Assembly (NCBI GenBank): GCA_049515915.1
Contig: JBEKTP010000001.1
Location: 6,855 to 70,854, forward strand
From: Patescibacteria group bacterium
GTDB taxonomy: Bacteria; Patescibacteriota; UBA1384; UBA12157; JAENIV01
DNA length: 64,000 bases
Reading direction: 5' to 3'
Made by a program: the position numbers and the translations under genes. Position 1 is the first letter of the stretch; every line of letters starts with the position of its first letter. Shown piece by piece: positions 226 through 58,501 of this stretch. Below the pieces are notes generated by a model. That model was given only the letters and a program-made list of their open reading frames with translations, was not told where the DNA came from and did no database searches.

Positions 226-240
226 TGACGATTTTTAGTT
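226..240 (-). repeat. recurring intergenic motif AACTAAAAATCGYCRAR (instance 1)
   Basis: The plus strand reads tgacgatttttagtt. It overlaps the last codon and stop of the gene ending at 235. Confidence 0.5.
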
Positions 241-501
241 TATTTTTCTTAATTCTATTTTGACTTTTTCTAATATTTTTTTGCGATTCTCGGGTAAGTT
301 TTTGCCGGCGCGATTGATGTAAAAGGAAAGCATGCTCATGGCCGAATTATACGGCATCCGGGCTTTGCGCCGAGTGCTAGTTTTGGCCGATTTCATTAAG
401 GAACGGGCGATCCGTTTCGGATCATCAAAACTAAAAATTCCCGGCTCCAAATCCAAAGCATTACTTTCTTTTGTAACTTTCCCCGACCAATATTTTTTCA
501 T
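235..501 (-). CDS. DUF3175-like small protein
   Basis: 88 aa; the motif SAMSMLSFYINRAGKNL resembles the DUF3175 family. The start is 8 nt after the intergenic motif instance. Confidence 0.45.
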   Translation of the reverse strand: MKKYWSGKVTKESNALDLEPGIFSFDDPKRIARSLMKSAKTSTRRKARMPYNSAMSMLSFYINRAGKNLPENRKKILEKVKIELRKIN

Positions 502-507
502 AAAATA

Positions 508-527
508 TCTCGGCGATTTTTAGTTCG
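508..527 (-). repeat. recurring intergenic motif (instance 2)
   Basis: The plus strand reads ctcggcgatttttagttcg. It lies right after the protease stop and 8 nt before the ATG of the DUF3175-like gene. Confidence 0.5.
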
Positions 528-924
528 ATTTATATTCTTTAGGTATAATTTCGAATTGCTTTTTACCTACTTCAAAAGTTAATTTAACTTTATTAAAGAA
601 TCCTTCGTGACCGAGAATCCCGAATCCATACGGGTTAATATCTCGTGTGAATATTATCGGCACATCTTTAAAAAGCCAACCGCCAATTTCTAAATCTACT
701 TTGTGAATATAACCTCGACCGGTACCGCATATTCCACCGAAGGGGTATTCGTCGCCTTTTTCCAAATCGATATGAAGTTGTTCGGCAACCTCCGCATGGA
801 CAATTGCTATATCGGCACCAGTATCAATTAACGCTTGATAGGGAAAAGATTTGCCGCCGGATTTAAAAACAACCGGCAAAACCGGTTTGTAAAACATCTG
901 AAATTTTACATATGGAAATTTCAT
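520..924 (-). CDS. retropepsin-like (clan AA) aspartic protease
   Basis: 134 aa; the D-T-G-A active-site signature (LIDTGADIAIV) is typical of retroviral-type aspartyl proteases. It is translationally coupled to the upstream small ORF. Confidence 0.6.
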   Translation of the reverse strand: MKFPYVKFQMFYKPVLPVVFKSGGKSFPYQALIDTGADIAIVHAEVAEQLHIDLEKGDEYPFGGICGTGRGYIHKVDLEIGGWLFKDVPIIFTRDINPYGFGILGHEGFFNKVKLTFEVGKKQFEIIPKEYKSN

Positions 925-925
925 T

Positions 926-1126
926 TTAACAGCCGATGTAGGACAATATTTTTTCAGGAACTTTAAAAGTTAGAGGGACTTTTCTCTTACCATATTTCTT
1001 CTCAAACTTATTTAATGCCTGAGATAGTTTTTTGTCTGCAGAAAGAACCGTCGTCTGATTAGAATCCAAAACCACCCATTGCCCTTTATAATCTTGATAA
1101 ATTTTTGTCTGATCAATAACTTTCAT
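926..1126 (-). CDS. small hypothetical protein, partner of the retropepsin-like protease
   Basis: The likely true start is MKVIDQ at 1126, with a GGAGTG RBS and a TTGGAT-N15-TGnTATAAT promoter-like element upstream. It is about 66 aa and ends 1 nt before the protease start. Confidence 0.4.
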   Translation of the reverse strand: MKVIDQTKIYQDYKGQWVVLDSNQTTVLSADKKLSQALNKFEKKYGKRKVPLTFKVPEKILSYIGC

Positions 1127-1178
1127 TTTCACTCCAACATTATTATAACACAATTATTTGACATCCAAAATTTGGAGG

Positions 1179-1196
1179 TTCGACGATTTTTATTGC
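1179..1196 (-). repeat. recurring intergenic motif (instance 3)
   Basis: The plus strand reads ttcgacgatttttattgc. It is preceded on the minus strand by TTGACG-N14. Confidence 0.5.
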
Positions 1197-1702
1197 TATA
1201 TTATTTCGTCAATTAAACCTGCCTCGAGGGCTTCCCCTGCAGAAAAATATTTGTCTCCCAACGCAGCAGCCTCGATTTGTTTAACTTTCTCGCCACTTCT
1301 AGTAGCATAAATTTCAAAAAATTTTTCATCCAATTTTCTAAAAGTGTTTAATGCTTCCTGAGCATTATCAACATAACCGGCCACTTGAACACTACTTTTA
1401 TGGAGCATCATTTGACTATTAGTTGTCATCAACCTTTTTTCACAAGCTTGTAATATCAAAGACGCCCCAGAAAAAGCAATCCCTGATACAACTCCAACGG
1501 TTTTTCTTTTGCAATTTTTAAGTAAGTCGTAAAGCCCAAGAGCAGTATGAGTATCGCCGCCAGGCGAATTGATAAAAACAGTTACTTCATCATTTTCTTT
1601 AGTGGAATTCATGACCGCTGAAAATCTTGCCGTAAAGTTAACATAAAATTCTTTATTATCTATCGGCCCCGCTACCCAAATTGAATTTTTGTATTCAGTC
1701 AT
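1196..1702 (-). CDS. ClpP-like serine protease (S14 family), stand-alone
   Basis: 168 aa. The INSPGG motif and the GIAFSGASLIL segment (Ser nucleophile) are present, with His in MLHKSS. It is shorter than canonical ClpP. Confidence 0.6.
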   Translation of the reverse strand: MTEYKNSIWVAGPIDNKEFYVNFTARFSAVMNSTKENDEVTVFINSPGGDTHTALGLYDLLKNCKRKTVGVVSGIAFSGASLILQACEKRLMTTNSQMMLHKSSVQVAGYVDNAQEALNTFRKLDEKFFEIYATRSGEKVKQIEAAALGDKYFSAGEALEAGLIDEII

Positions 1703-1740
1703 CGAGTTATCCTTTTTAATTATAATTTTTCAACTTTGAG

Positions 1741-2421
1741 TTAAAAGGGTGTTTCATTGTCTGGACTTTTGTAGCCGTGAGTTATTTGGTCACCAACATG
1801 GCGGTATTTGCACCACTTGCAGTCTTCGGCTTCGGCTGGCAAGGGCCCAGATAAAAGATCATCAATAATTTTGGCGAACCTAAGAAAATGCGCCTCATCG
1901 CAAGGAATTTCCAGCCACTTGGGCGGAAAATCTATTTTAGCAATGCCATTCTTGAACTTCACCATGTCTGGATAAAAAATCAAAAGCCCAAGCTTGGTAA
2001 TTTTTAACGACTCGCCGCTACTCGGATTTTCGAGAGCAAATTTATAAGCGCCGAGCTGGGTTTTATACTTTTCGATTTTATCTTCGGCCGGCTGGCTGAT
2101 TTTTAAGTCAATTAAAGTGTGGGTACCATCGCTATTTTTGACCAATAAATCGTATTTTCCTTTGATGTAAACATTCGTTTCCGGCACCGGCATCGATTCG
2201 ACCCAGCCTTCTTGTTTGATAACTTCTCCCTCAGGTAGATCTTTGGAAATGGATTGTAAATTTCTCCCGACTAAATCTCCTTGGAGCCGACTGTTGATCG
2301 CCGCAAAAACTCCCGGCATCGGCATGCTAGGCTGATAGATTCCAGCTTTGACTTTTAAGCAATAGCAAAGCTTACATTCTTCGTAAAGGTAGGCGAAATC
2401 CGACGGTGACAGTTTATACAT
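1741..2421 (-). CDS. Cas4/RecB-like PD-(D/E)XK nuclease with Cys clusters
   Basis: 226 aa. The D..(I)DLK core and a QxxxY motif (TQLGAY) are present. Cys cluster CKLCYC lies at the N-terminus and C175 plus CKWC near the C-terminus, resembling the Fe-S staple of Cas4/AddB-type nucleases. Confidence 0.55.
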   Translation of the reverse strand: MYKLSPSDFAYLYEECKLCYCLKVKAGIYQPSMPMPGVFAAINSRLQGDLVGRNLQSISKDLPEGEVIKQEGWVESMPVPETNVYIKGKYDLLVKNSDGTHTLIDLKISQPAEDKIEKYKTQLGAYKFALENPSSGESLKITKLGLLIFYPDMVKFKNGIAKIDFPPKWLEIPCDEAHFLRFAKIIDDLLSGPLPAEAEDCKWCKYRHVGDQITHGYKSPDNETPF

Positions 2422-2430
2422 AAAGTTATC

Positions 2431-3342
2431 CTATCTATCCGGTGCGTTATCGTAACCTTGCTTGATAACCGACATAATATAATCGGCATTGGCGTTGTTG
2501 ACAAAATCGTGATACCACAGAGCGGTCGTGCCCCATTTGTAATTCGCCGGAACTTTCTTAAATATCTTTTTGGGATCGTCAATTTTTGTCGATCGAACAT
2601 ACACTCTAATTTTTTCTTTTGACAAGTTCAACGAGCAAAAATTATGATATTGAACTTTATAGCCAATATAATTTTTAACCGGTTTTGCCTGAATACGACT
2701 ATCCAGATTTATTATTCGCTCATGCATTTCCTCGAAAAGTGTTTTCACATTTCCACTGACGCGACTTAAGTGATCGGCAATCGTATATTCTTGAATCTCC
2801 CGACTAACTTCTTTGACTGGTTTAGTTTTTAAAATTGATGAAATCGAAATGTCCGATTTGGGAGTTTCAATTTGCTGAATTTGAAAAATATCATTTGACC
2901 AATCATACTTCCAAAGTTCAAAAGGAACACCTTTAAATCCCAAGGCGTTTGTTTGGTGAGTGTTAAAACTTCGAGCAATAAAAATTACCCGCGCTTGAGA
3001 CCAATCAATTTCTTTTTTTCCAATTTTACTTTCAAGAACAATTTGATAGTCACCTTTGTGGTTTAAGAGCCAGCTTAAGTAAGCCATGCCTTGATCAATG
3101 ACGCTTTCATGAGAATCTTTTTTATATTCTATAAGCACGGGGCCTTTTGTTTCTGAATCGTAGGCAATCGTATCAATCGAAAGTCCCTGACCTCCGAATT
3201 CAGTTCTTAGAAATTCTAAACCAAAAATCTCTTTGAGATTATTGTCAACTAATGTCTGCAACTCAAGTTCACTTTTAAAACTTTCTGACTTAAGGGCCTT
3301 GAACTTGTTATTTTCAATTTTAAATATCGGCATAATACCCAA
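2431..3342 (-). CDS. RecB-family PD-(D/E)XK nuclease domain protein with C-terminal unknown domain
   Basis: 303 aa. The N-terminal IDTIAYD...LIEYKK (D-E-K) is followed by a QGMAY (QxxxY) motif. The C-terminal half is uncharacterised. Confidence 0.5.
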   Translation of the reverse strand: MGIMPIFKIENNKFKALKSESFKSELELQTLVDNNLKEIFGLEFLRTEFGGQGLSIDTIAYDSETKGPVLIEYKKDSHESVIDQGMAYLSWLLNHKGDYQIVLESKIGKKEIDWSQARVIFIARSFNTHQTNALGFKGVPFELWKYDWSNDIFQIQQIETPKSDISISSILKTKPVKEVSREIQEYTIADHLSRVSGNVKTLFEEMHERIINLDSRIQAKPVKNYIGYKVQYHNFCSLNLSKEKIRVYVRSTKIDDPKKIFKKVPANYKWGTTALWYHDFVNNANADYIMSVIKQGYDNAPDR

Positions 3343-3385
3343 ATTATATTACTTTAGGACTTTTTAATCCAGAAACCTCTAGTTT

Positions 3386-3529
3386 TTATTTCTTCTTTGG
3401 TTTCTTTCTTCTTCCCGTTACTAAAGTTCGTGCATATCCTGGTTCTTTTTTCTCTGGCGTATGTGGATTTTGAAGGCCTTTCCCGGCTTTACTTAGCTGA
3501 GCTTTTGTTGGTTTTTTATTTTTTGCCAT
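3386..3529 (-). CDS. small very basic protein (47 aa)
   Basis: It is absent from the ORF track because it is under 60 aa. MAKNKKPTKAQLSKAGKGLQNPHTPEKKEPGYARTLVTGRRKKPKKK is preceded by an AAAGGTGGTGA RBS 7 nt upstream. Confidence 0.35.
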   Translation of the reverse strand: MAKNKKPTKAQLSKAGKGLQNPHTPEKKEPGYARTLVTGRRKKPKKK

Positions 3530-3618
3530 TATTACTCACCACCTTTCTCAATCACTTCTTCAACTTTTTTTTCGCTTCTGCTAAAAGCGCTTTGGATTTT
3601 TGGTGAGCAGTGTGGAAT

Positions 3619-3780
3619 TCAAAATTCCTCAATACCTTGGTACTCCAGTTTCTTTTTGTATTCCGGCATTGTGTCGCCATTTTCCAAGCAAACATCGAGC
3701 ATAAAGGTTTTTGGATTCGCCCAGCTTTCGACATCCACTCGCCCTTCACCGTATTTGCTTTTCACTAAAACACAAGTCAT
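3619..3780 (-). CDS. small hypothetical protein (53 aa)
   Basis: ATG at 3780 is preceded by a strong RBS (AAAAGGAGGTATAA). The track ORF 3552..3749 is in a different frame and is probably spurious. Confidence 0.4.
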   Translation of the reverse strand: MTCVLVKSKYGEGRVDVESWANPKTFMLDVCLENGDTMPEYKKKLEYQGIEEF

Positions 3781-3802
3781 TTATACCTCCTTTTAAAAAT
3801 AT

Positions 3803-3823
3803 TCAATCGACGATTTTTAGTTC
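3803..3823 (-). repeat. recurring intergenic motif (instance 4)
   Basis: The plus strand reads tcaatcgacgatttttagttc. It immediately follows the GNAT stop codon and lies about 20 nt upstream of the RBS of the 53-aa ORF. Confidence 0.5.
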
Positions 3824-4309
3824 TTATGTTAAATCTTTTTGCAATGTTACCAATTCTAATTCTTCATTCGTTTTTTTATTAATAACATTACTAATAACTT
3901 TTCTGCTTGTGATTTGGGTAAAACCGATTTTACGGTAAAATTTGCGTGTTCGTACATAAGGTTCATATTTAATTTTTTCAGATAATGTTTCAACTTTTAA
4001 TTTATTGATGTCTAATGTTATTAATATTTCTTCTAATTCGTGGACTAAAGCTTGACCAATGCCTTTTCTTTGATAGTCTGGTAAAACTCCCAACCAACTT
4101 ATAAACACTTCTCCCTCAAAAGAGCTATAGGTTAGAAAACCAACAATTTTTCCATCACATTCGGCTACATAGCCTTGATGAAAATTCAAATCATTCGGAA
4201 TTTCGAAAGTCAGCGCGTAATTATCAAACCAATCATGAAGATTTTTAGCAATCTTTATTATTTCCGGCCGATCTCGTTGTCCAAGTTTTCTAATTTTAAT
4301 ATTTTGCAT
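3824..4309 (-). CDS. GNAT family N-acetyltransferase
   Basis: 161 aa; the acetyl-CoA binding motif QRKGIGQALV is present. Confidence 0.8.
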   Translation of the reverse strand: MQNIKIRKLGQRDRPEIIKIAKNLHDWFDNYALTFEIPNDLNFHQGYVAECDGKIVGFLTYSSFEGEVFISWLGVLPDYQRKGIGQALVHELEEILITLDINKLKVETLSEKIKYEPYVRTRKFYRKIGFTQITSRKVISNVINKKTNEELELVTLQKDLT

Positions 4310-4321
4310 TTATTTAAATCC

Positions 4322-4339
4322 CTCGACGATTTTTGATTC
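4322..4339 (-). repeat. recurring intergenic motif (instance 5)
   Basis: The plus strand reads ctcgacgatttttgattc. It lies 12 nt upstream of the GNAT ATG, and the minus strand reads TCAAAAATCGTCGAGGGATTT. Confidence 0.5.
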
Positions 4340-4442
4340 ATATTAATTATACTCCAAAAACTATATAAACCTTTATTTTTTAAATAGATATAGTATAATA
4401 AACACGATTTGGATTCCAGCGTCAGAAGGAGGTGAACAAATC

Positions 4443-4763
4443 ATGGCCGATGAGAAGACCTACGCGCAAAGACTGGCTGAGACCCAAGCGATGTCCACCG
4501 AGGAGATTCACGAAGCCATCAGAGCGCGCGAGGCAGCTGGAAAACCCTGCGGCATACTCCACAGGGTATTAGCGGATCGTTCCGACGAGCGGGCCAAAAC
4601 GCTCGGTATCGATCCGCCCAGACCAGGAAGAAAGACGTATTCTGAACGGTACTCCGAGACCAGCTCCATGTCTACAAGCGAGATCAGAGCCAAGATCGCA
4701 GAACGCAGGGCTCAAGGCAAGGAGGTCGGTGTCCTCGAGCGCGTTCTTTCAGAACGTGAGTAG
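4443..4763 (+). CDS. high-GC hypothetical protein with internal tandem duplication
   Basis: 106 aa. Two ~45-aa repeats are present (MSTEEIHEAIRAREAAGKPCGILHRVLADR / MSTSEIRAKIAERRAQGKEVGVLERVLSER). GC is about 57% against about 35-40% flanks. It has a strong RBS (GAAGGAGGTGA) and its own terminator. Confidence 0.5.
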   Translation: MADEKTYAQRLAETQAMSTEEIHEAIRAREAAGKPCGILHRVLADRSDERAKTLGIDPPRPGRKTYSERYSETSSMSTSEIRAKIAERRAQGKEVGVLERVLSERE

Positions 4764-4790
4764 CCGCCCAGGCCAGTTGAACGATCGAAC

Positions 4791-4830
4791 GAAACCGCCT
4801 AGTAGCTTTAAAGCGAACGGCGGTTTTATT
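4791..4830. terminator. bidirectional rho-independent terminator
   Basis: Hairpin AAACCGCC...GGCGGTTT with a T-run on the plus strand and an A-run upstream. It sits between convergent genes (4443..4763 + and 4894..5421 -). Confidence 0.6.
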
Positions 4831-4853
4831 TAGATAGAATAACCCAGAATTTC

Positions 4854-4873
4854 CCTCGGTGATTTTTAGTTCG
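4854..4873 (-). repeat. recurring intergenic motif (instance 6)
   Basis: The plus strand reads cctcggtgatttttagttcg. The minus strand reads TTGACT-N14-TAAAAATCACCGAGGGAAATT, about 20 nt downstream of the last gene of the R-M operon. Confidence 0.5.
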
Positions 4874-4893: not shown

Positions 4894-5421
4894 CTAACTC
4901 TTTTTCTGGTTTTCTTTTGAATAGTACCAGAGAGCCTTGTCTAATGTTCGCAACGATACTTGATATTTTTCTGATAGTTTTCTTAATTCTTCAGTATATT
5001 TTTCCCAAAATCCAAAATCATAGCTTTTGGGCTGTTGCCATCCTAATGACCAAATAGCTCTGAAATCTAATATTGGATATTTATTTGGATATGCAAAATG
5101 TAAAATTACAGATGCAACCGGCCACGATGCACCTTTAATCAATAATAATGATCCAATGCTCGCTCTTTCATTTTTTGTGGATAATGCGAAGCTAGTTATT
5201 TCTCTAATAAACTCGTCGTCATTATTTTCATAATGTTTCTTGGGACGTTTTGACTTCCAAAGCCCGAGTATTACAAAATGCCTTTTATCCAAGTATTTAT
5301 TTGATAAAAACCAGTTTTTTAATTCCTTTTCATATTTTTCGTCGTCCGTTGCCCGAAAAATTGAATCGTATTTATTGCTATATTCTATTATTTTTTCTCT
5401 TGATAGTTTCATTTCTTTCAA
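4894..5421 (-). CDS. hypothetical protein (175 aa), last gene of the R-M operon
   Basis: Long ORF with a 6-nt gap to the upstream glycosylase-like gene and no recognisable motif. Confidence 0.45.
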   Translation of the reverse strand: MKEMKLSREKIIEYSNKYDSIFRATDDEKYEKELKNWFLSNKYLDKRHFVILGLWKSKRPKKHYENNDDEFIREITSFALSTKNERASIGSLLLIKGASWPVASVILHFAYPNKYPILDFRAIWSLGWQQPKSYDFGFWEKYTEELRKLSEKYQVSLRTLDKALWYYSKENQKKS

Positions 5422-5427
5422 TAATTT

Positions 5428-6204
5428 TTATTTCTCGCTTATTATCTTCGGGCACAATGAATTCAAATAACACTTTTGACAATCTGGATTTTTTGGTCGG
5501 CACCAGTTGTGCCCGATTTCCCAACAAGACAAATCAAAAATTCCAGGATAATCCGGATGAAGTTCGCGGGCAGCATATACCAATTCTTCAGAATTTTCTT
5601 TTTTTGTAAAACCAATCCGCTTAAATACCCGTCTCAAATGAACATCTGGCGAGACATCAATACAAATTTTATCTTTTACTTCAATCTTGAAATCTCTAAC
5701 AAGGATATTAGCGGCCATTGTAGAAATTTTAATCCCTACACCCCTAAATTCTTGAAACCTTTTAACTAGCAAGGCACTACTTGGTTTTCCCAACCAAATA
5801 TTTGCCGCATTGCTTTTATATTTATTTTTTATGTCTTGCAAAGCATAAAAAAAATTCTCAGCCATATCAGTATTGAATCTATGAAGTTTCTTATTATTAA
5901 AAAGTTCAATATATTGTTCTTTGCTTAATTTTAATAATTCAGTTATTTCAAAAGTATTTAACTCTTGAGAGATTTTGTAGGGTATAACCCAAGCTCTTTC
6001 GGCGGGGATTTGCCGATCCATAACACAGGCAAGCACAAATGCGTGTGGATATTTATCCAGATTATTTAATAATTTTTCGGCTTGGTTATTATTAGTAGTA
6101 AAGTTGACAATTTCTTTGGGTCTATCCAAAAGAGCCTGACCACGTTTTATCAGTAATTCGCTAATTTCCGCTTTTTTAAATTCATTATCCATCCAATTCT
6201 CCAT
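5428..6204 (-). CDS. endonuclease III-like HhH-GPD DNA glycosylase with [4Fe-4S] cluster loop
   Basis: 258 aa. An HhH motif with Lys (FRGVGIKISTMAANIL) is followed by IDVSPDVHLRRVFKRIGF, resembling Nth GVGRKTA...VDTHIFRV. The C-terminal C-x6-C-x2-C-x5-C (CRPKNPDCQKCYLNSLC) matches the EndoIII/MutY Fe-S loop. Confidence 0.65.
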   Translation of the reverse strand: MENWMDNEFKKAEISELLIKRGQALLDRPKEIVNFTTNNNQAEKLLNNLDKYPHAFVLACVMDRQIPAERAWVIPYKISQELNTFEITELLKLSKEQYIELFNNKKLHRFNTDMAENFFYALQDIKNKYKSNAANIWLGKPSSALLVKRFQEFRGVGIKISTMAANILVRDFKIEVKDKICIDVSPDVHLRRVFKRIGFTKKENSEELVYAARELHPDYPGIFDLSCWEIGHNWCRPKNPDCQKCYLNSLCPKIISEK

Positions 6205-6240: not shown

Positions 6241-7380
6241 TTATAATTCCCCTTCAAATGCGCTAGATAGGATGGATTGTTTGAGAGAGGAAAGATCGGC
6301 GAGCTGGTTTTGCTGAAGGGTTTTGAGTTTTTCGACTTTTTCTCGCAAATTATTGAGATAAGCAACAATCTTTTTTTGTTCCGAAATCGACGGAAGCGGG
6401 ATTCTTTCTTTTTTTAAAATTTTATAATGTCTGCTGTATCCCAAGCTTTCAAGATCTAAATCTTGAAGAGCATAATAAAAATATTTTGGATTGAATTCAT
6501 CTTTCGGATCTATGATTTTGGTGCCATCTGCCCCGATGGCGAAAACAAAATCAATATATTTAAAAATTCGAGTATGGTCTCCAAAAATAATTACCGGCAA
6601 TTCCCCTTGATACGTGGTATATTTATCATTTGTGTAACCGCCAATCAAAGACGCACCTTGATCAACAATTGGATAATTTCCTTCTCTATAGTAATTTGTC
6701 TTAGCAATTCCTTTTATTTTTTTTGGTAACTTTTTAATACATTCGGAAAATTCTATCATTTTATTTTTTTTACTGATATTTTGTAAAACTTTTTTAAGAG
6801 ACGAGCAGAAAATCTGATTTGTTCCTACGAGAGATTTTTGGCGGAGGACGATGGCTTTGTCAATTTTTTCAAAATATTTCTCAATCTTCGCCACGATTTG
6901 TTTTTGGATTTGGAGAGGCGGGATAGGGATTTCGAGATTAGAATATTGTTGGGCATTTATATTGGGTTGTGTAACCTGATTTAGTGTCCTTGAAATAAAG
7001 TTTTTATAATAGGGGCTTAATGAATATAGAAAGAAAAATTTGGGAAGCACTTTATTTTTATCCAGCTTAAACCGAATTAAATAAGATGCGAACAATGCGG
7101 GTTTTGGCAAATCTGTTTTATTAACTAAATACATTCTGCCAACTGAGCCGCTTCGGGCAATTAAAATATCATCATTTTCCAAAGCATATTTTTTGAAAGT
7201 TACTTCATTAGTATCAATAAACTTAGGATTAGCAAGATTTAACATTCCTGAATCATTTATGTCCGTTATCCGAAGATATAAATATGGTTTTTCTTGTAAA
7301 CTTGCTTTAGCCGTAAAACCGTATTGTGGTTTTGTCTTTAATAATTCTCCTATTTTTTTTATCGGCCAGTTAGTTTTCAT
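6241..7380 (-). CDS. hsdS: Type I restriction-modification specificity subunit HsdS
   Basis: 379 aa with two target-recognition-domain halves and conserved LPLPPLQIQKQIVAKIE / IPLPSISEQKKIVAYL repeats. It overlaps the upstream ORF by 4 nt. Confidence 0.85.
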   Translation of the reverse strand: MKTNWPIKKIGELLKTKPQYGFTAKASLQEKPYLYLRITDINDSGMLNLANPKFIDTNEVTFKKYALENDDILIARSGSVGRMYLVNKTDLPKPALFASYLIRFKLDKNKVLPKFFFLYSLSPYYKNFISRTLNQVTQPNINAQQYSNLEIPIPPLQIQKQIVAKIEKYFEKIDKAIVLRQKSLVGTNQIFCSSLKKVLQNISKKNKMIEFSECIKKLPKKIKGIAKTNYYREGNYPIVDQGASLIGGYTNDKYTTYQGELPVIIFGDHTRIFKYIDFVFAIGADGTKIIDPKDEFNPKYFYYALQDLDLESLGYSRHYKILKKERIPLPSISEQKKIVAYLNNLREKVEKLKTLQQNQLADLSSLKQSILSSAFEGEL

Positions 7381-7976
7381 TTTGATTTCCTCATCAGACC
7401 ATTAATGATTTTCCGATCGAAATAAAAAAGGAGTAATCCCAATCTTTGTAAACAGTCAATGAAAACAAAATAAGTAAATTGCCCCATCGGCGTTCGCTGT
7501 AAATCCTGTAAAATCTTTCTTTTTCTCTCATCTATGTGAAAAAACTCAGCGTTAAACCATAAATCCACAATTTCTTCTGTTTTTAAATTTTGATTATTCA
7601 CCTTAAGTCTCATCCCACCGAGAGGGAAATTATCTTTTTTCTCTAATATTTTTCCCCAATTTTCGCGACACCCAACAAGTTCTTTGATGATTTCTTCATT
7701 TTTACAATTTTGAAAAACAAAGTTACAAACTGAATAAAAATTAATCGATGAATTTTCTGCAATAAAATGCCGGAAATCTAAAATAAAGGCTTTTGTCGAT
7801 TGCTCATCCGGACCGGCCGATTTCACAGTTAGACCTTCATTTTCGCTATAGTTTAATTGCAAAGAAACATTTTTATAAAAATTCCTGTTGGAATGAAGTT
7901 TCTGAACTTTATCGTGAAAATCACTTAAAATCCTATCATATTTTTCGTTTACAATATCCTTATTATTAGTTTTCAT
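7377..7976 (-). CDS. hypothetical protein embedded in Type I R-M operon (199 aa)
   Basis: ATGA-type overlaps on both sides (with hsdS and with the 208-aa ORF). No known motif was recognised. Confidence 0.5.
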   Translation of the reverse strand: MKTNNKDIVNEKYDRILSDFHDKVQKLHSNRNFYKNVSLQLNYSENEGLTVKSAGPDEQSTKAFILDFRHFIAENSSINFYSVCNFVFQNCKNEEIIKELVGCRENWGKILEKKDNFPLGGMRLKVNNQNLKTEEIVDLWFNAEFFHIDERKRKILQDLQRTPMGQFTYFVFIDCLQRLGLLLFYFDRKIINGLMRKSK

Positions 7977-8599
7977 TTAACTAATCCAATAAACTTTAAA
8001 AATCTTATTCCTTTTTCAGTAACAATATAGCTGTCATCGATTTTTTGAATCATTATATTTTGTAATAGAACATTAAAAATCGATTCGCGTTCTAATTTAT
8101 CTGGGATTCTGGGCTCATAAATAATGTTGAACAGGTCTTTTGTGAATGACCCAAGATCGTGAGCCCACTTTAAAACAATTTTTGTGTTTGGCACAAAGAA
8201 TAGATTAAGATATAAAAATTCATACAATTCAGACCGTTGAACAAGATAATTGATGAAATTCTCTTTTTCCTGAATTTTTTTTTCCTTTTCTTCAGATTCA
8301 CCTGATATTTTCAAAAATTCTTGATCTAATAAGTTAATTTGTTCTTCTGTCAAAGTAATTCCTTTTTGTTCCAGTGAATTTTCAATCTTTCTGTCAATGT
8401 TTTCCGGTGGCCGCTGAGTCGCTTCCACAGGACCAACTCTAAGAGAGTAAATATTTTTCAGAAATTCTCGGATAGAATCACTGAATTTTAATATAAAAAT
8501 TAGTCCTAAAACGAAAATAGCAACAGGCCATGACAAGACAGCTTTTAAATATTCTGGGATGACTTTAATAATTTCTAATGTCATAAATTTCTTACTCAA
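7973..8599 (-). CDS. hypothetical membrane-anchored protein embedded in Type I R-M operon (208 aa)
   Basis: An N-terminal TM helix (WPVAIFVLGLIFILKF) is followed by a charged helical region. It is abutted to the neighbouring ORFs. Confidence 0.5.
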   Translation of the reverse strand: MSKKFMTLEIIKVIPEYLKAVLSWPVAIFVLGLIFILKFSDSIREFLKNIYSLRVGPVEATQRPPENIDRKIENSLEQKGITLTEEQINLLDQEFLKISGESEEKEKKIQEKENFINYLVQRSELYEFLYLNLFFVPNTKIVLKWAHDLGSFTKDLFNIIYEPRIPDKLERESIFNVLLQNIMIQKIDDSYIVTEKGIRFLKFIGLVK

Positions 8600-9511
8600 T
8601 TATTTTTTGGACGATAAATATTCCTCATGTTTATCAGCTATTTCGAAAAGCCATTGCACAATTTTATCAAGATAGCTTTTTATTTCTTTGGCCTGGCCTT
8701 CGCCAAATGCGATTATTGACAGATATTCTTCTAAGGTTTGTAAAACTAGTACGGATATTGTTTCAATCAGCTGTGGCCTGGGAGTGGCATATTCAAATTT
8801 TGGTAGCCGAAAACCCATCTTATCCTCGTCTCTTTCTAAGTGATCAAAGTCAAGCTCGTGCCAACTACCATGTACATAGTGAGAACTAATTTTGAATACA
8901 AGTTCATATATAGGGTAAAGACCGACATCTTCTGCCTTTCCAGATATTTCTAAGTGTTTCTTTTCGAGTCCCCATTTTGTTTTTTCGAGTTCTTTTTCCT
9001 CAAGATTATCGAGATGTGATCGTTTGTAAGTTTTATTTATACTTTCCAACATCCTTTTTTCAATGGGTAACTTATTATTCCGTTTTTGAATATTTCGAAG
9101 AACGATATTTTCTAGTTGTTTTTCGTAAGCTAACGAAGCCCTTTTATATTTTTTATAAATGTCCGTATCAAAGTATTTTATCAAATAATTTAAATTTATT
9201 ATTGTTTCAGCAAGTGACCTTAAAACAATAAAAGCAATTTCTGTCCTGCGCTCTACGATTAAAAAGGTAAAAGTGTCGTAAAGTTTGTAAATCCTGACGA
9301 GATGCCCTCGAAGAATATCTAATTTTTCTGGTTCAATTTCTTTTTGGGATACAATTCCCGCAATTAAAATGACTGCTTTACGCACATCATTTGCAACAGC
9401 CACAAGATCGACCATAAAATCATTGTTACTATTCCTTTCTTTAGTAATCAATGGCAATTTTAATTCTGGTAATTCTAGCTGGACAAATTCATCTTCCTTT
9501 GGCTCTTTCAT
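8600..9511 (-). CDS. hypothetical alpha-helical protein embedded in Type I R-M operon (303 aa)
   Basis: It overlaps the hsdM stop by 4 nt. An His-rich segment SSHYVHGSWHELDFDH is present. It is possibly a DUF5677-like family member, but that is unverified. Confidence 0.5.
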   Translation of the reverse strand: MKEPKEDEFVQLELPELKLPLITKERNSNNDFMVDLVAVANDVRKAVILIAGIVSQKEIEPEKLDILRGHLVRIYKLYDTFTFLIVERRTEIAFIVLRSLAETIINLNYLIKYFDTDIYKKYKRASLAYEKQLENIVLRNIQKRNNKLPIEKRMLESINKTYKRSHLDNLEEKELEKTKWGLEKKHLEISGKAEDVGLYPIYELVFKISSHYVHGSWHELDFDHLERDEDKMGFRLPKFEYATPRPQLIETISVLVLQTLEEYLSIIAFGEGQAKEIKSYLDKIVQWLFEIADKHEEYLSSKK

Positions 9512-10932
9512 AAATTTAGATTATTTAAAATTTTTTTAATTTCATCTTCTTTTTCTATTATATTTTTAATCAATTCCTCCGGTTTCTTAAGATCTAAATT
9601 CTCTTTCCCATTCGGATTCTTGGCAGAGAGGTCATAATTTTTGGAAATAATTCCTTCATTTTTAACCGCCCAAGAATTTTCAGATTTCGTTTTCTTCTGC
9701 CATTTTTCAAGAGCATCTGCCGTATGTTCGTCTAAAATTGGGTTTTTCTTGGTGTATTTGATACCGGCAGGCGGGTTCAGTTCGTAATACCAAATTTCTT
9801 CGGTTGGTTTGCCTTTTTCAAAAAATAAAAGATTGGTTTTGGGACCTTGGCCGGATGAAGAAACATTGGCAAAAACGCCGGGCGGAAGGCTGATGATGGT
9901 ATGTAAATTACAATTTTCTAAAAGCTCTTTTTTAATATTGACATAGGTTTTTCCAGTTCTAAAAAGCACGCCTTCAGGCAAAACAATTCCGGCTCGGCCG
10001 CCGGCTTTGAGCTTTTTCATCAAATAATACAAGGCTAAAAGTTCGGTATCCGAGGATTTAATCGGAAAACCTTGCAAAACTTCTTTGTCTTCAACGCCAC
10101 CAAAGGGCGGATTAGTCAAAATAATATGGTAGCGTTCGCTTTCCGGAATAGAAGTTAAATCCTCCGCAAAAGTATTAGTTTTGGTAATGTGGGGCGATTG
10201 GAGATTGTGTAAAAGCAGGTTCATAATGCCCAAAAGATAGGGCAGGGATTTGGCTTCATTGCCATAAAAAGTCTCATTTTGGAGAACGGAAAATTGTTTA
10301 GCCGTTAATTTAGGATTTTTTTCTTGGAGGTATTTGAAACTTTCAGCTAAAAATCCACCGGAGCCAGCAAAAGGATCAAAGATTTTCTCGCCGATTTGGG
10401 GATTAATAATTTTTACCATCAGCCGAATAATTGGTCGCGGAGTATAAAATTCACCGGAAGCGCCACCCTCTTGGCCCATCTTTAAAAGCAGTTCTTCGTA
10501 GACTTGGGAAATAATGTGAGTGTCCTCGGGCTTAGAAAAATCAAGTTCATCTAAAAGATTGACGACATCTTTGAAATTGAATGGCGAGTGCATATAGTTG
10601 CGCAGATCATCAAAAAGTGAGGCAATAATGTTTTTTAATGGGGTACCGCGAAGATTTCTTAAATACGGAAACAATTTAATATTTACAAACTCTGATTGTT
10701 CTTTTGCTTCCAGCTTGCTCCAAGCAGACCATTGATATTTTTTTTCGATAACTGGCTGGTATCTTTCCCCAAAAACTTGCGCCCCCAGTCGGCTTTTATG
10801 CTCAATCTGTTCAAAAAGTTTTAAAAATAACATCCAAGAAACTTGTTCGATGTACTGCAAAAGATAGAGTTTGTCACGGCGCATAATATCGCAGGCTGAC
10901 CAGATTTTATTTGAGAGGGTTTGTCTATCCAT
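9508..10932 (-). CDS. hsdM: Type I restriction-modification DNA methyltransferase subunit HsdM (N6-adenine)
   Basis: 474 aa with an HsdM N-terminal domain, the catalytic NPPFG motif (LTNPPFGG) and an AdoMet motif (FDPFAGSGGFL). Confidence 0.9.
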   Translation of the reverse strand: MDRQTLSNKIWSACDIMRRDKLYLLQYIEQVSWMLFLKLFEQIEHKSRLGAQVFGERYQPVIEKKYQWSAWSKLEAKEQSEFVNIKLFPYLRNLRGTPLKNIIASLFDDLRNYMHSPFNFKDVVNLLDELDFSKPEDTHIISQVYEELLLKMGQEGGASGEFYTPRPIIRLMVKIINPQIGEKIFDPFAGSGGFLAESFKYLQEKNPKLTAKQFSVLQNETFYGNEAKSLPYLLGIMNLLLHNLQSPHITKTNTFAEDLTSIPESERYHIILTNPPFGGVEDKEVLQGFPIKSSDTELLALYYLMKKLKAGGRAGIVLPEGVLFRTGKTYVNIKKELLENCNLHTIISLPPGVFANVSSSGQGPKTNLLFFEKGKPTEEIWYYELNPPAGIKYTKKNPILDEHTADALEKWQKKTKSENSWAVKNEGIISKNYDLSAKNPNGKENLDLKKPEELIKNIIEKEDEIKKILNNLNL

Positions 10933-13443
10933 TTAGACTCTTTCCTTTTGATAAAGATATTTTTGTAATTTTTGAATCGCAGACCTGGCTTGTTGGGGCC
11001 CGCCGAGGGAGACAATAATTTTTTCAATCCCGATTTCTTGAAATTTTGGCAAATTGAAAACTTCTTTTCGGGATATGTCTTCGATGCCGCCAATGCGGTA
11101 TTGATCAAGTAGGGCCAAAATAATCGGTTGAGCTTCTCTGCCAAGCGATGATAAAAATTCCTGTTTTCTAATTTCGATTGCCTGGGCCCGTTCATCGCGA
11201 GAAATAATCGGCGCGTCAAAAGCAACATGAGCTAAGACATCAAAAAAGTCAGCGTCTTCGCGATCAATCAGCTTAGCTAGGGCTTCAGGCGAAACGCTTT
11301 GATCTTTTAAATTCGAAAGAAAAGTTTTTCTCTTTTCTTCATCAATCCAGATTTTTTGCAAGTCATCCAAAGTTAGAGCCAGTTTGGCGACTTCTTCTTT
11401 GGAATATTCTTTGTATTCCGCACTTTTTAAGTGATTGCCGCCGACATCAAAAGTAAGATCGGCAGTGGAATAAATGTAGACGTCAACGCCGCCAAGAGTG
11501 ATTTTGTGAGGAGTTTTTCTTTCTTTTTTAAGCTCATAGATTTCTGGTTGGGGTTCAGGGGTGGGAGTGATTCGAAGTTCTCGGCGAACAAAACCGTTGG
11601 CGGAAATTTGCAGGGTAACTTTAATTCTGGGAAGTTTGTCAAAGGCAAAAATTCCGAGTTCATTGGTGGTTGTTTGTAAGTGCTCGTGCGCTTTGGTCAT
11701 CACGGTTACTTTGGCGCCAATAATTGGCGTTTCGGTTTTGGAAATGACAATTTTTCCTTCTAAAAAGCTATCATTAGGACCAATTTCTTCGTCTTCCGCT
11801 TCCTCTTTTTCCTCGGGTGTTAAAACAGAAAATAGTCTGGTGGCATTGACATAATCAATGATGCGAAAATAATATTTACTAGTGGCGGCATCAATGCGAC
11901 TACCACGACCAATAATTTGGTTGAAAAAAACCACTGACGAGATTGGCCGAAGTAAAACAATATTTTTTACCGAAGGCATATCAATGCCCGTGGATAAAAG
12001 ATCAACGGTGGTGGCGATAACCGGTGTTTTCTTTTCCGAATCTTTAAAAGCTTGGGCCAATTCGTGAGCGCCGCCTTCTTCGGAGACAATCGTGACCGCG
12101 TAGTTGGCCGCGCCTTCGGAGGAAAAATGATTTTGTAATTCTTTAGTCATGGCCCGGGCGTGGTCATTATTAACACAAAAAACAATCGTTTTTTCGTAGG
12201 TGCCAAATTTTTTAAGAAGACCGGCGAGATGTTCTGCGATTTTTTTCGTTAGGTTAGGAATGGCGACTCTACGTTCAAACTCACCGGCAGTGTAAAAGGC
12301 TTTGATTTCGTCATCAAATTCTTCGGGATAAAAAACTTCGGCTCCCTGCAATCTTTGTTCTTCAACATCCACGCCGCCTTCTTTATGAAGGTTGGTCAAA
12401 ATTCTCTGGATCATATAATTCGCGAGAAAGCCGTCTTTGATGCCTTGGCGAAGATTATATTCATAAACAGGATTGCCGAAATATTTATAAGTATTAATAT
12501 TATCATCACGCTTTGGAGTAGCGGTCATGCCGAAGTGAATAGCGCCGGAAAAATGTTTTAAAATGTCATACCAAAGATTCCAGCCCGAGCGATGACACTC
12601 ATCAATGATAACCATGTCGAAAAAGTTTTTGGGATAAGTTTCAAAAAGCCGCTTACCATTCTTTTGAGAATAAAGAGTTTGGTAGGTAGTAAAATAAATA
12701 TCTCGCACTTGAGGCGCTTTGCCTTCAATTATCTTTTCGCGGGCGTCTTTAAGAGGACCAAACTCCAATTCATAAGCCTGATCGCGGATGAGCCGGCGGT
12801 CGGCAACAAAAAGAACACGTTTGATATACCCGGATTGGTAGAGTTTCCAGACGGTTTGAAAAGCGACTTTTGTTTTTCCCGAACCTGTCGCCATAGAGAC
12901 CAAAATCCTCTTTTGCTTTTTGACGATGGCTTCGATAACCTTTTGAATAGCTAAAAGTTGATAATAACGAGGATTTTTGCCAAAGGGGGTAATATAGAGC
13001 GGGTATTCAAGCGGATTTTTCTCAAGTTTTTTGGCCAAAACTTTACTGTAACTTTTTAAACGGGCGTAAAGTTCTTCGGGTTTCGGGAATTGTTTGATTG
13101 TTTTTTGAGTATTAGTGATAAAATCAAACTCTTCGATGGCATGGCCATTAGTAGAATAAGCAAAAGAAAGTTCAAGTTTCTCCGCGTAGTCTTTGGCTTG
13201 TTGCATGCCATCCATTGAAGTGTGGTTTTCGTCTTTGGCTTCGACAACCGCGATCGGAAAAGCGTTATTGTGAAATAAAAGATAATCGGCAATCTTATTT
13301 TTTTCTCTTTCAACCCGATCGCCTAAAATATTAACTTTGCCGGCGGTGATTTGAAATTCCCTTTGAGTGTCTTCGTCTTTCCAGCCGGAATCTTTTAATT
13401 GAGGATCAATGAGTTTTGATCTTGTATCGGATTCGTTGAGCAT
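10933..13443 (-). CDS. hsdR: Type I restriction enzyme R subunit HsdR with inserted beta-sandwich domain
   Basis: 836 aa. SF2 helicase motifs are present (MATGSGKT Walker A, DECHR). The C-terminal EcoEI_R_C-like domain is present. An inserted transthyretin/carboxypeptidase-regulatory-like segment (~residues 560-640) is seen. Confidence 0.9.
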   Translation of the reverse strand: MLNESDTRSKLIDPQLKDSGWKDEDTQREFQITAGKVNILGDRVEREKNKIADYLLFHNNAFPIAVVEAKDENHTSMDGMQQAKDYAEKLELSFAYSTNGHAIEEFDFITNTQKTIKQFPKPEELYARLKSYSKVLAKKLEKNPLEYPLYITPFGKNPRYYQLLAIQKVIEAIVKKQKRILVSMATGSGKTKVAFQTVWKLYQSGYIKRVLFVADRRLIRDQAYELEFGPLKDAREKIIEGKAPQVRDIYFTTYQTLYSQKNGKRLFETYPKNFFDMVIIDECHRSGWNLWYDILKHFSGAIHFGMTATPKRDDNINTYKYFGNPVYEYNLRQGIKDGFLANYMIQRILTNLHKEGGVDVEEQRLQGAEVFYPEEFDDEIKAFYTAGEFERRVAIPNLTKKIAEHLAGLLKKFGTYEKTIVFCVNNDHARAMTKELQNHFSSEGAANYAVTIVSEEGGAHELAQAFKDSEKKTPVIATTVDLLSTGIDMPSVKNIVLLRPISSVVFFNQIIGRGSRIDAATSKYYFRIIDYVNATRLFSVLTPEEKEEAEDEEIGPNDSFLEGKIVISKTETPIIGAKVTVMTKAHEHLQTTTNELGIFAFDKLPRIKVTLQISANGFVRRELRITPTPEPQPEIYELKKERKTPHKITLGGVDVYIYSTADLTFDVGGNHLKSAEYKEYSKEEVAKLALTLDDLQKIWIDEEKRKTFLSNLKDQSVSPEALAKLIDREDADFFDVLAHVAFDAPIISRDERAQAIEIRKQEFLSSLGREAQPIILALLDQYRIGGIEDISRKEVFNLPKFQEIGIEKIIVSLGGPQQARSAIQKLQKYLYQKERV

Positions 13444-14806: not shown

Positions 14807-17065
14807 ATGGCTAGCGAAATTAAGTTTGCGAAAATTACAAACTCAGGGAAACTCCAAGACCGGTTTTTGACGTGTCAATATGCTCAGTCGGAGGATCTTT
14901 CCCGATCAGGCATGGGGGAAATTTTTTCCATTGTGGAAATCTTGTCCCCTTGGTTTCCGACCGCTCAAATCGGCCAGTTAATCATCAATAATTTTAACAA
15001 GCATTACTATCAGGGTGGCAGCACCTCCGACCTGGTTAACTTTGAAGAATCGCTCAAAGGCGTCAATGAAAGTTTGGCTTTAGCGACCCAAGACGGGGAA
15101 ACGGACTGGATCGGTAAACTCAATGCTATTTTAGCCGTCGTTGTCGGCAGCAGTCTGCACATCGCCCCGACCGGCAAAATTGATGCTTACATTTTCCGCG
15201 ACGGAAAAGTCAATCAGTTAACCGAAGGGATGGCCGGGACGGTCGAAGTTCATCCGCTCAAAACTTTTTCCAATGTCATTTCGGGGGAATTAAAACCTCA
15301 CGATAAGGTACTCCTCACCAGCAGCGATCTTTTAAATTATCTTTCCTTAGAATCGATTCAGCAGCTCGTCGCCTTCAATAATCCGTCGGTCGCCGCCTCG
15401 CAAATCGCCAAATTGCTCCGAAAAGCGCGCGGCCGGAACGTCAACCTTGTCATTATCGGTCTTTATTCCAAAGACGAAATCTCGGCCGAACCGGCTACCG
15501 GCGAATTAGAAACAACCTATTATCTAGATAAATCGAGCGATTCGATTTTTCATCGGCTCAAAAATTTATGGCACAATATTTTGGCCCCGATTCTAAAAAT
15601 GACCGGTTCCTCTTTAGCAAAATTAACGACCAAATCTTTTAACGACGCTTCAACTAAATTCAAGAATTTAAGAGAAAAAAAACCAGCCGAAGCAAATGAG
15701 GTCAAAAGTCAAGCTTTACCTCCCTCAACCACCCCCAGCGCCCCCAGCCCGCCTGCCGAGCCGAAAGAAGATCACTTTCATCGCGAGTTTTTAAAAGATA
15801 CCCCGCGCGATGATACCCTTCTTAAAGATGAGCAGATTAACTTCTCGCCGGAATACATTCACTATTATAACGAAAACAAAAAGCCGAAAGAAAGTTATCT
15901 TAGCAAGTTATTCCCGAAAATTTTAGGGGCGATGGCTCGATTCTATCGTTTCGTGATCGCCTTAGCCCAAGATCGGAATCGCCGAAAATATCTCTACATC
16001 GCCGGCGCGGTGGTGCTCATTCTCATCATCGCCTTATTTACGCTCTTTCACGGGAAGGGCACGAAAGTCGGCAACATCCAGGCCCAAAACATTTTAGATC
16101 AGGCCCTTTCTGCCGAAAAAGACGGTAAAAATTCCCTGGCTAACGGCAATCAAGACCAAGCCAAAACTCAGTTTTCTGATGCGATCAGTAAAGCTCAAAG
16201 CATCTTAGGTAACACCTTTGTCGCCAAAGACGCCAATCAAGTTATAACCGATTCCTATAGCCAACTCGATAAGCTCACGGCGACAACCCGCTTTACGAGC
16301 TTAAACGCCCTCTCGACCAGCCCCACCGAGACCAATAATTTCTACGTTTTAAACGGGGAAATCTACTTTATTGGCCCAACGACCATCTATCAAGGCAGTG
16401 TGCTCGGCGGTACACCCGAAAAAGTCGCCGCTTTGCCCAGCGGCAAGGGCAGCATTATCGCCTCCACTCAAGCCAGTCAAATTCTTTACCTTTACACTAA
16501 TAACCAATATATGTTCAGTTTTGATGCCACCAATAACCAGCTCAATCAAATCTTGGTCAGTGGCGGCAAATGGGAAACCGCCAATGCGCTTTCGTATTAC
16601 GTGGGCAGTCTCTATCTCCTTGACGGCGTCCTGGGGCAGATTTATAAGCACACCTCCACTCAAAATACCTTTGCCGCCGGGCAAGCCTATCTGACGAGTA
16701 ACACCTCCACCGTCAAGCAAAGTCTTTCGATGGCCATTGACGGCTCGATCTATGTTTTAAAAAGCACCGGCGACGTAATCGAGTTCCAGCATTCTAAGCT
16801 GCAGGACTTTAAATTAACTGGTCTCCCGACCCCCGCCGATCAACTGGCTAAACCGATTAAAATCTATACCGATTCCGACACCCCCGCTCTTTATATCTTA
16901 GATAACTCCCAGAAAAGAATTGTCGAGTTTGATAAAAACGGCAACTTTATCCATCAATATGCTCTACCAGAAAGATTTAACGATATCAAAGACTTTGACA
17001 TTTCGATTAAATCCCGTAAAATTTGGGTCTTGCAAAAAAACAGCGTCTACGAACTAAATATATGA
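14807..17065 (+). CDS. transmembrane protein with cytoplasmic PP2C-like (degenerate) domain, Pro-rich linker and extracellular beta-propeller-like repeats
   Basis: 752 aa. The N-terminal domain resembles the PP2C fold but has a degenerate GDSR motif (AVVVGSSLHIAPTGKIDAYIFRDGKVNQLTEG). A TM helix at ~400 is followed by six or more repeats of hydrophobic-strand motifs (IYFIGP, YMFSFD, LYLLDG, IYVLKS, LYILDN, IWVLQK). Confidence 0.5.
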   Translation: MASEIKFAKITNSGKLQDRFLTCQYAQSEDLSRSGMGEIFSIVEILSPWFPTAQIGQLIINNFNKHYYQGGSTSDLVNFEESLKGVNESLALATQDGETDWIGKLNAILAVVVGSSLHIAPTGKIDAYIFRDGKVNQLTEGMAGTVEVHPLKTFSNVISGELKPHDKVLLTSSDLLNYLSLESIQQLVAFNNPSVAASQIAKLLRKARGRNVNLVIIGLYSKDEISAEPATGELETTYYLDKSSDSIFHRLKNLWHNILAPILKMTGSSLAKLTTKSFNDASTKFKNLREKKPAEANEVKSQALPPSTTPSAPSPPAEPKEDHFHREFLKDTPRDDTLLKDEQINFSPEYIHYYNENKKPKESYLSKLFPKILGAMARFYRFVIALAQDRNRRKYLYIAGAVVLILIIALFTLFHGKGTKVGNIQAQNILDQALSAEKDGKNSLANGNQDQAKTQFSDAISKAQSILGNTFVAKDANQVITDSYSQLDKLTATTRFTSLNALSTSPTETNNFYVLNGEIYFIGPTTIYQGSVLGGTPEKVAALPSGKGSIIASTQASQILYLYTNNQYMFSFDATNNQLNQILVSGGKWETANALSYYVGSLYLLDGVLGQIYKHTSTQNTFAAGQAYLTSNTSTVKQSLSMAIDGSIYVLKSTGDVIEFQHSKLQDFKLTGLPTPADQLAKPIKIYTDSDTPALYILDNSQKRIVEFDKNGNFIHQYALPERFNDIKDFDISIKSRKIWVLQKNSVYELNI

Positions 17066-55441: not shown

Positions 55442-55549
55442 ATAAGTCGCAAATAATTTACGACGTTCTGAACCCAGCTCGCGTACCCTTTTAATTGGCG
55501 AACAGCCAAACCCTTGGGACGTACTTCCGCCCCAGGATAGGATGAGCCG

Positions 55550-56372: not shown

Positions 56373-56404
<32 letters not shown>

Positions 56405-56425
56405 ATTCGCTACCATAGAACGGTT

Positions 56426-57860: not shown

Positions 57861-57891
<31 letters not shown>

Positions 57892-58451: not shown

Positions 58452-58501
<50 letters not shown>

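Follow-up and report, generated by a model that had tools for sequence, protein, structure and literature searches.

The bacteria of the Patescibacteria, or Candidate Phyla Radiation (CPR), have tiny genomes, yet these genomes hold hypervariable islands of defence and accessory genes, the turnover of which is poorly understood. We analysed a stretch of 64,000 nucleotides (hereafter the window) from a Patescibacteria group bacterium (contig JBEKTP010000001.1, positions 6,855 to 70,854) and, within it, a short sequence motif that recurs between the small genes of one such island. The window is bacterial chromosome of the Patescibacteria/CPR type. Its first ~13.4 kb are lower in G+C than the remainder (0.32-0.37 versus 0.40-0.52), and the motif copies lie within this low-GC island, downstream of a type I restriction-modification (RM) operon. 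After the operon, small unrelated genes follow one another in a run on the minus strand; the last, TspO, is cut by the window start. Sequence past that start is available in locus L001 (JGI 3300038423), the source contig (window coordinate = 10502 - L001 coordinate). There, TspO and a further motif copy are followed by a GC-rich 71-aa gene, a Replic_Relax gene and a tRNA. An earlier reading of the window (the original prediction) had described six copies of the motif and proposed that they act either as promoter/operator sites or as cassette boundaries; our comparison of genomes supported the second proposal, and the promoter part of the first went unsupported.

A search of the window with up to 3 mismatches allowed returned 9 matches where 1.47 were expected, a number reached in 0 of 100 shuffles. 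Six of the nine are the minus-strand copies described earlier (224, 509, 1179, 3806, 4322 and 4855), all recovered in the places originally given. The other three (19958, 50410 and 63395) carry 3 mismatches each, fall under the listing threshold of 12 of our position weight matrix (PWM; 20 nt, built on 23 copies), and are taken as chance. The matrix adds a degenerate copy at 5417-5433 (17.1 bits), making 7 copies within 5.2 kb of the window at a score of at least 17, and an eighth copy stands just past the window start, after the TspO gene (L001 10719-10735). In the remaining ~59 kb of the window, a PWM scan of both strands found nothing comparable. The consensus of the 23 copies, G-AA(C/A)TAAAAATC(G/A)(T/C)CGAG(G), describes an asymmetric, one-directional motif of 17-20 nt. 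Its least variable part is TAAAAATC, and variation is mainly between G and A at position 12 and between C and T at position 14. As had been noted, TTGACK followed by 14 nt precedes two copies (those at 1179 and 4855); as to the ending CGAGGGA(A/T)TT given for two other copies, CGAGGGATTT stands at 4322, and the copy at 4855 reads CGAGGGAAAT.

Positions relative to called genes were tabulated for 5 loci, yielding 27 non-redundant copies from five related genomes (L169 copies duplicating those of L001, and three matches inside genes, were left out). In 15 of the 27 the motif starts at -6 to +2 nt relative to the upstream stop codon or gene end, and in 8 of those 15 its own TAA is the upstream stop codon. 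In the window this is the case for the copies at 224, 509 and 5417, which corrects the earlier description of the motif as lying directly after stop codons; the copy at 4855 lies 22 nt past the stop of the 172-aa gene. On the other side, 11/27 copies have the next start codon 4-12 nt past their end, their GAGG thus occupying the Shine-Dalgarno position, and at four junctions the motif is essentially the entire 16-18 nt spacer. The interval of 8-25 nt to the next start that had been reported does not agree with the same-strand distances measured in the window, which are 4, 7, 12, 25, 30 and 52 nt, with none for the copy at 4855. A perfect TATAAT stands exactly 7 nt upstream of 5 copies, in three genomes and at least two unrelated upstream contexts, a spacing that would place the motif at the transcript start rather than in the promoter. 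The -35 partners of the five boxes are weak (0-4 of 6 matches), and a consensus scan for sigma-70 promoters made no call at any copy. Other copies have a stop codon before them and a separate promoter or AGGAGG after them (window 1179 and 3806, L264 841), or no same-strand gene downstream (window 4855 and L171 11951, both facing convergent genes), or neither stop nor start nearby (L171 9751, L179 7004 and L179 8015). The orientation of the motif always matches the transcription of the array. Position at a gene junction and orientation with transcription are what stays steady across copies, while adjacency to start codons and promoters varies.

Comparison of related genomes by blastn and pairwise alignment bears out the proposed cassette boundary: units of gene plus motif have been reshuffled among strains and species, and homology breaks off inside the motif. 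Between L001 and L171, the homology block containing the DUF3175 gene (9970-10278) sets in shortly ahead of one motif and stops where the next one ends; the unit is 85% identical in L171, and the flanks on either side of it are unrelated. In the comparison of L001 with L169, one block begins at M3 (copy names as in Table 1), the motif ahead of a 53-aa gene, and another ends inside M7, the copy after TspO, where L001 has an insertion of ~650 bp. L264, from a sister sample and with a GNAT gene 98% identical, reads X-motif-GNAT-motif-DUF5678-protease-motif-DUF3467-motif-DUF5678. Its GNAT unit, motif to motif, is 96.7% identical to that of the window and has different neighbours; its DUF5678-protease unit (82% identical) follows directly after the GNAT unit, and the 2.6 kb that separate the two units in the window are absent from L264. 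The sequence following the motif at L264 841 matches that following an otherwise 'empty' motif in L171. In the window, a reversed 106-aa gene is flanked by two co-oriented motif copies; in L171 a copy precedes a reversed 140-aa gene, the far side of which is only loosely motif-like. The apparent exchange points fall at differing motif positions (about 4, 9, 14 and 16). In these alignments, homology blocks between related genomes begin and end inside the motif, and the units between motifs have been re-ordered and differ in their divergence.

Relatives of the island were found through the cassette proteins, and about 10 kb on either side of each anchor were read. Motif arrays are present in L169, L171/L172, L179/L182 and L264. 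On the 542-kb contig of L169 (DUF3175 98% identical) the right half of the array is common with the window and the left half different; L171/L172 (DUF3175 86% identical) have eight gene-strand copies between unrelated genes; and L173 has weak copies. The DUF3175 relatives L175 and L177 (76% identity) have no motif copies, and therefore the motif does not travel with the DUF3175 family in general. A second survey was anchored on the PD-(D/E)XK protein of the island and comprised 80 metagenome loci (658 kb), scanned with the PWM on both strands. Only the L179/L182 genome has a motif array, of 7 copies, one of which matches exactly, has TATAAT at -7 and is followed by an ATG after 6 nt; the other 78 CPR loci gave 3 weak matches at a PWM score of at least 17 and none on the opposite strand. 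A de novo 11-mer search in other CPR lineages found no comparable junction motif. Exact-motif scans of viral contigs and genome contigs gave only uninformative single-copy chance matches among those listed, with no locus carrying two same-strand copies among the listed viral or genome-collection matches; nearly all collection matches are inside coding DNA, where GAA CTA AAA ATC GCC GA encodes ELKIA(E/D). The motif is restricted to one lineage and, inside it, to the island, and on this point the scans of the window and of the other CPR loci both agree with the original prediction. We found no description of such an element in the literature on Patescibacteria.

The PD-(D/E)XK protein itself is Cas4-like and 65-80% identical across many CPR groups. 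Upstream of it, L179, L181 and the window lineage have a 53-aa gene, and in several of the CPR loci examined (L179, L180, L181) the nuclease gene adjoins variable accessory and defence arrays, so that it may mark a conserved hotspot. Some loci with the same nuclease carry multi-copy repeats of at least 11 nt that are unrelated to the motif (L196 3173-4805, L240 955-3484, L256 3068-9117; also L247).

Table 1. Features of the window, from the restriction-modification operon towards the window start, followed by the rRNA region
Feature	Coordinates	Strand	Remarks
Type I restriction-modification operon (hsdR, hsdM, DUF5677, two unknown genes, hsdS)	6241..13443	-	upstream of and co-directional with the cassette array; in the same low-GC island
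hsdR	10933-13443	-	
hsdM	9508-10932	-	
hsdS	6241-7380	-	
258-aa gene, no family match	5428..6204	-	last gene ahead of the first motif copy
Copy M0, degenerate, AAATAAAAATTATTGAA	5417..5433	-	PWM 17.1 bits; TAA is the stop of the 258-aa gene; ATG of next gene 4 nt on
172-aa cassette gene, no family match	4894..5412	-	between M0 and M1
Copy M1, AACTAAAAATCACCGAG	4855..4871	-	22 nt past stop of 172-aa gene; then convergent gene, no same-strand gene
106-aa gene, GC-rich, no family match	4443..4763	+	reversed; between co-oriented M1 and M2
Perfect TATAAT, putative -10	4346..4351	-	exactly 7 nt upstream of M2; weak -35
Copy M2, AATCAAAAATCGTCGAG	4322..4338	-	12 nt ahead of GNAT ATG; GAGGG at Shine-Dalgarno position
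GNAT acetyltransferase cassette (M2-GNAT-M3)	3824..4309	-	
Copy M3, AACTAAAAATCGTCGAT	3806..3822	-	1 nt past GNAT stop; 25 nt ahead of 53-aa gene (own AGGAGG); homology with L169 and L264 begins or stops here
Block without internal motif copies	1196..3780	-	53-aa, S-gene remnant, 47-aa, DUF5655/PDC-S18, PD-(D/E)XK, ClpP-like
53-aa gene	3619-3780	-	
S-gene remnant	3532-3615		between the 53-aa and 47-aa genes
PD-(D/E)XK gene	1741-2421	-	
Copy M4, CAATAAAAATCGTCGAA	1179..1195	-	abuts ClpP-like stop; upstream of TGnTATAAT promoter for the DUF5678/protease pair
DUF5678 + retropepsin-like aspartyl protease cassette (M4...M5)	520..1126	-	two genes
Copy M5, AACTAAAAATCGCCGAG	509..525	-	TAA is the aspartyl-protease stop; DUF3175 ATG 7 nt on; left edge of L171 DUF3175 homology block
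DUF3175 cassette (M5-gene-M6)	235..501	-	
Copy M6, AACTAAAAATCGTCAAA	224..240	-	TAA is the DUF3175 stop; right edge of L171 DUF3175 homology block
23S rRNA gene	55378-59103	-	3.7 kb versus 2.9-kb model
Group I intron in the 23S rRNA gene	55564-55878		
LAGLIDADG homing-endonuclease open reading frame	56505-56996		in or beside 23S rRNA gene
LAGLIDADG homing-endonuclease open reading frame	54880-55407		in or beside 23S rRNA gene

The TATAAT box upstream of M2 would, as a putative -10 element, set the transcript start at the first base of that copy. Some of the other features in Table 1 call for brief comment. The protein with the DUF5655 domain matches PDC-S18, a candidate defence protein of PADLOC (3.8e-84). 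The S-gene remnant is ~80% identical to the 3' ends that the S (restriction-specificity) genes have in L171 and L173. The reversed 106-aa gene has two ~45-aa internal repeats, a TATAAT promoter of its own and a hairpin terminator at about 4793-4830. At the far end of the array, the border is formed by the Replic_Relax-family gene and the tRNA (L001 about 12495-12570, ~2 kb past the window start), and the low-GC region at 1-13.4 kb may be an island integrated beside this tRNA; the motif was rejected as a duplicated tRNA attachment core, the 3' end of the tRNA being unrelated to it. The sequence GAACTAAAAATCG (for example in the copy at 509-526) fits GAA(N6)RTCG, which we take to be a type I recognition site of the EcoR124I type, and a type I RM system is near. 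The fit is probably a coincidence, because the 'spacer' of the putative site is no less conserved than its ends and the RM types of the other motif-bearing genomes are different. Outside the island, the 23S rRNA gene is interrupted by a group I intron and accompanied by two homing-endonuclease genes; intron-rich rRNA is typical of CPR bacteria. In L171, two elements of ~130 nt (15536-15667 and about 17545-17680), 84% identical to each other, resemble 6S RNA (RF00013) at 35.4 bits, below the gathering score of 46.4; each stands behind a -10-like box, upstream of DUF3467 and GGDEF genes.

The motif has no evident structure of its own. No inverted repeat, palindrome or hairpin occurs at or around any copy, and the A-rich half is predicted to be unpaired with a probability of 0.73-0.79. 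Rfam gave no relevant match at the gathering threshold or at E<=1, and a known RNA family was rejected. An antisense partner was likewise rejected, there being no reverse-complement copy within the 64-kb window. The partial palindrome TCGYCGA was considered as a site for a dimer and rejected, since the variants TCATCGA and TCGTTGA disrupt it without compensation.

We propose that the motif is a portable leader, or intercistronic joint, of a gene-cassette array, doubling as the recombination point at which cassettes are shuffled, and we give this reading a probability of about one half. Unrelated accessory and defence genes would be joined as motif-gene(s)-motif units, the motifs all pointing along transcription. 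The motif would be transcribed as the first ~17 nt of the mRNA where TATAAT lies at 7 nt and as an intercistronic spacer otherwise, and would supply a TAA stop, an A-rich stretch free of pairing and, in GAGG, a site for ribosome binding. Cassettes would be exchanged, deleted and inserted by homology-driven recombination within the motif, as it is the only sequence common to otherwise unrelated cassettes; exchange might follow DNA uptake, for example, with conserved neighbours like the PD-(D/E)XK gene serving as anchors. We regard the motif as functional and not as a relic: its near-perfect consensus is kept where orthologous genes are only ~75% identical in DNA. Base-by-base conservation across genomes so diverged would imply a trans-acting factor, concerted evolution, or both, and the conserved 5' half suggests an additional trans-acting reader, by analogy with the argument made for the SAS elements of mycobacteriophages (PMC3203893).

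Several points weigh against this proposal. The transcript starts are deduced from TATAAT boxes with the weak -35 partners described above, and three copies lie near neither a stop nor a start codon. Some copies are followed by a separate promoter or Shine-Dalgarno site, so that a role in ribosome binding is not general. A plain ribosome-binding site or leader, moreover, leaves the base-for-base conservation of GAA(C/A)TAAAAATC unexplained. Breakpoints fall at cassette borders under any mechanism, and hence their location at the motif is alone no proof; and 17-20 nt is short for RecA-dependent recombination.

The motif resembles several described elements (PeSLs, SAS and stoperators) and belongs to none of them, differing from these, and from the attC sites of integrons, in sequence, size, structure and host context. 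The proposed exchange would resemble that of the regulatory cassettes of T4-type phages known as promoter-early stem-loops (PeSLs), repeated intergenic elements which, like the motif, occupy hyperplastic regions of small accessory open reading frames (PMC2839356, PMC4122927). PeSLs run from the upstream stop codon to the Shine-Dalgarno site or start of the next gene and mediate insertions and deletions (PMC2839356); the motif, too, was found to reach from upstream stop to downstream Shine-Dalgarno site or start, and to stand at the borders of indels and replacements between related genomes. PeSLs are, however, longer phage elements with a full sigma-70 promoter and a G/C stem-loop terminator, whereas the motif lies on a bacterial chromosome, measures 17-20 nt, has no stem-loop terminator and contains no promoter, the nearest counterpart being the TATAAT found 7 nt upstream of 5 copies, with its poor -35 matches. 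The likeness we draw does not extend to mini-circles.

The main rival to the leader-and-joint proposal is a DNA operator of the stoperator type, which we hold to be possible and on balance unlikely. In this case the motif would be an asymmetric site for a monomeric or tandem-domain regulator encoded elsewhere, repressing initiation where it lies at +1 to +17 and blocking elongation between genes, so that the island would be silenced as one regulon and the shuffling at the motif would be a by-product. Such an operator would explain at once the copies at promoter +1, just downstream of TATAAT in five instances, and those that follow a stop codon and precede the next promoter, a sensible place for an insulator; the asymmetry of the motif, its place in short intergenic gaps, its constant orientation along transcription and its conservation base by base across diverged genomes all suit a protein-binding site of this kind. 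They agree, too, with the published L5-type stoperators of Cluster A mycobacteriophages, asymmetric ~13-bp sites found in over 20 short intergenic gaps and in promoters, oriented with transcription (PMC9283540). Stoperators, however, have a known cognate repressor in a prophage, whereas the motif is chromosomal and tblastn found no candidate regulator common to the flanks of the motif-bearing loci: L169, L171 and L173 have LexA-like genes beside their arrays, but none lies near those of the window or L179. Copies that face a convergent gene, moreover, have nothing to regulate. A purely RNA-level signal, with the shuffling unrelated to it, is considerably more doubtful. On this view a translational regulator or small RNA would bind the motif, or the transcript would be processed there, which is what has been proposed for SAS of Cluster K mycobacteriophages (PMC3203893). 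The GAGG core close to the ATG in 11/27 copies and the predicted unpaired A-rich half favour it, and the likeness to SAS is extensive: both are short and asymmetric, keep one orientation in one part of the genome, lie a few nt upstream of ATG, sometimes include the upstream stop, precede unrelated gene families, and contain a Shine-Dalgarno core whose flanks are also conserved, which is the very argument made for SAS. The two differ in sequence (GGGATAGGAGCCC versus GAACTAAAAATCGTCGAGG), and SAS stands almost always beside the start codon (3-7 bp upstream), whereas 16/27 motif copies do not; the absence of a complementary sequence from the window tells against a small RNA partner, and motifs flanking reversed genes would go unexplained. 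Recombination breakpoints are not treated in the description of SAS (PMC3203893).

Further readings were considered. A dedicated site-specific recombinase that acts on the motif, as in integrons, is improbable, if slightly less so than the RNA signal. Like attC arrays, the motif arrays consist of co-oriented, mostly single-gene units with a recurring site that can overlap stop codons, as attC sites often do, and with occasional reversed cassettes that have their own promoter; cassettes are re-ordered between strains, and the orientation of the motif is constant even where the gene is reversed. The enzyme would be encoded elsewhere, candidates being an HUH/Y1 enzyme, the Replic_Relax protein or some unknown enzyme. 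In L001 and L179 a single Y1_Tnp gene is found no more than ~8 kb from the array, and in L001 and L169 the array has a Replic_Relax gene at its border. Neither is consistently present, however, and IS200-like Y1 transposase genes, seen at L001 17337-17756 and L179 17511-18371, also occur at a motif-free locus with a GNAT relative (L262 6082-6771). Pfam annotation of about 10 kb on either side in the window, L001, L169, L171 and L179 found no integrase (intI) and neither intI nor attI adjacent; within 10 kb, none of four genomes has a tyrosine or serine recombinase, and a tblastn comparison of the flanks found no shared regulator or recombinase. A recombinase site is the less likely reading because no recombinase is nearby, the site lacks symmetry, inverted repeats or a hairpin, and the inferred crossover positions vary between junctions. 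Nor does the motif have the features of attC itself, which is an imperfect inverted repeat (R''-L''...L'-R') of roughly 57-141 nt that folds into a single-strand hairpin, with the core GTTRRRY. An attC fold was rejected, in line with the lack of palindromy noted originally: the motif is predicted to be largely unpaired, and the spacer it occupies can be 16-18 nt, far shorter than attC. The core is absent as well, the plus strand reading GTTCGAT, GTTTATT, GTTCTTA and GTTCGTG. Integron-like capture in this Patescibacteria lineage, in which a putative recombinase acting on a short (17-20 nt), unstructured, directional site would excise and insert motif-bounded units independently of IntI and attC, must be regarded as a long shot. 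Membership in the REP/RAYT system was also rejected: REP elements are palindromic hairpin repeats scattered genome-wide with a RAYT (Y1) gene, whereas the motif, with Y1_Tnp near some arrays, is non-palindromic and confined to the island. Least probable is the original suggestion of a promoter within the motif itself, TAAAAAT being the -10 element and the GC-rich part the discriminator. TAAAAAT is indeed -10-like and TTGACK precedes two copies, but the hexamers of a sigma-70 promoter are 16-19 nt apart, and a spacer of 14 nt falls short of this. Were transcription to begin ~7 nt after TAAAAAT, the mRNA would lack GAGG and have a leader of 4-8 nt; the motif fills stop-start gaps of only 16-18 nt; five copies have the perfect TATAAT upstream and others precede a separate promoter; and the lack of a call at any copy in the sigma-70 scan agrees.

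What the motif offers is a sequence-defined handle on the turnover of islands in CPR bacteria. It marks cassette borders, makes shuffled units recognisable in metagenomes, and points to a shared regulator or a recombination route. As a search key, it can help to find new accessory and defence genes in this lineage. If it were a true recombinase site, it would represent a new cassette-capture system; if it is truly a PeSL-like "mobile regulatory joint" in a bacterial chromosome, such modular evolution would reach beyond phages.

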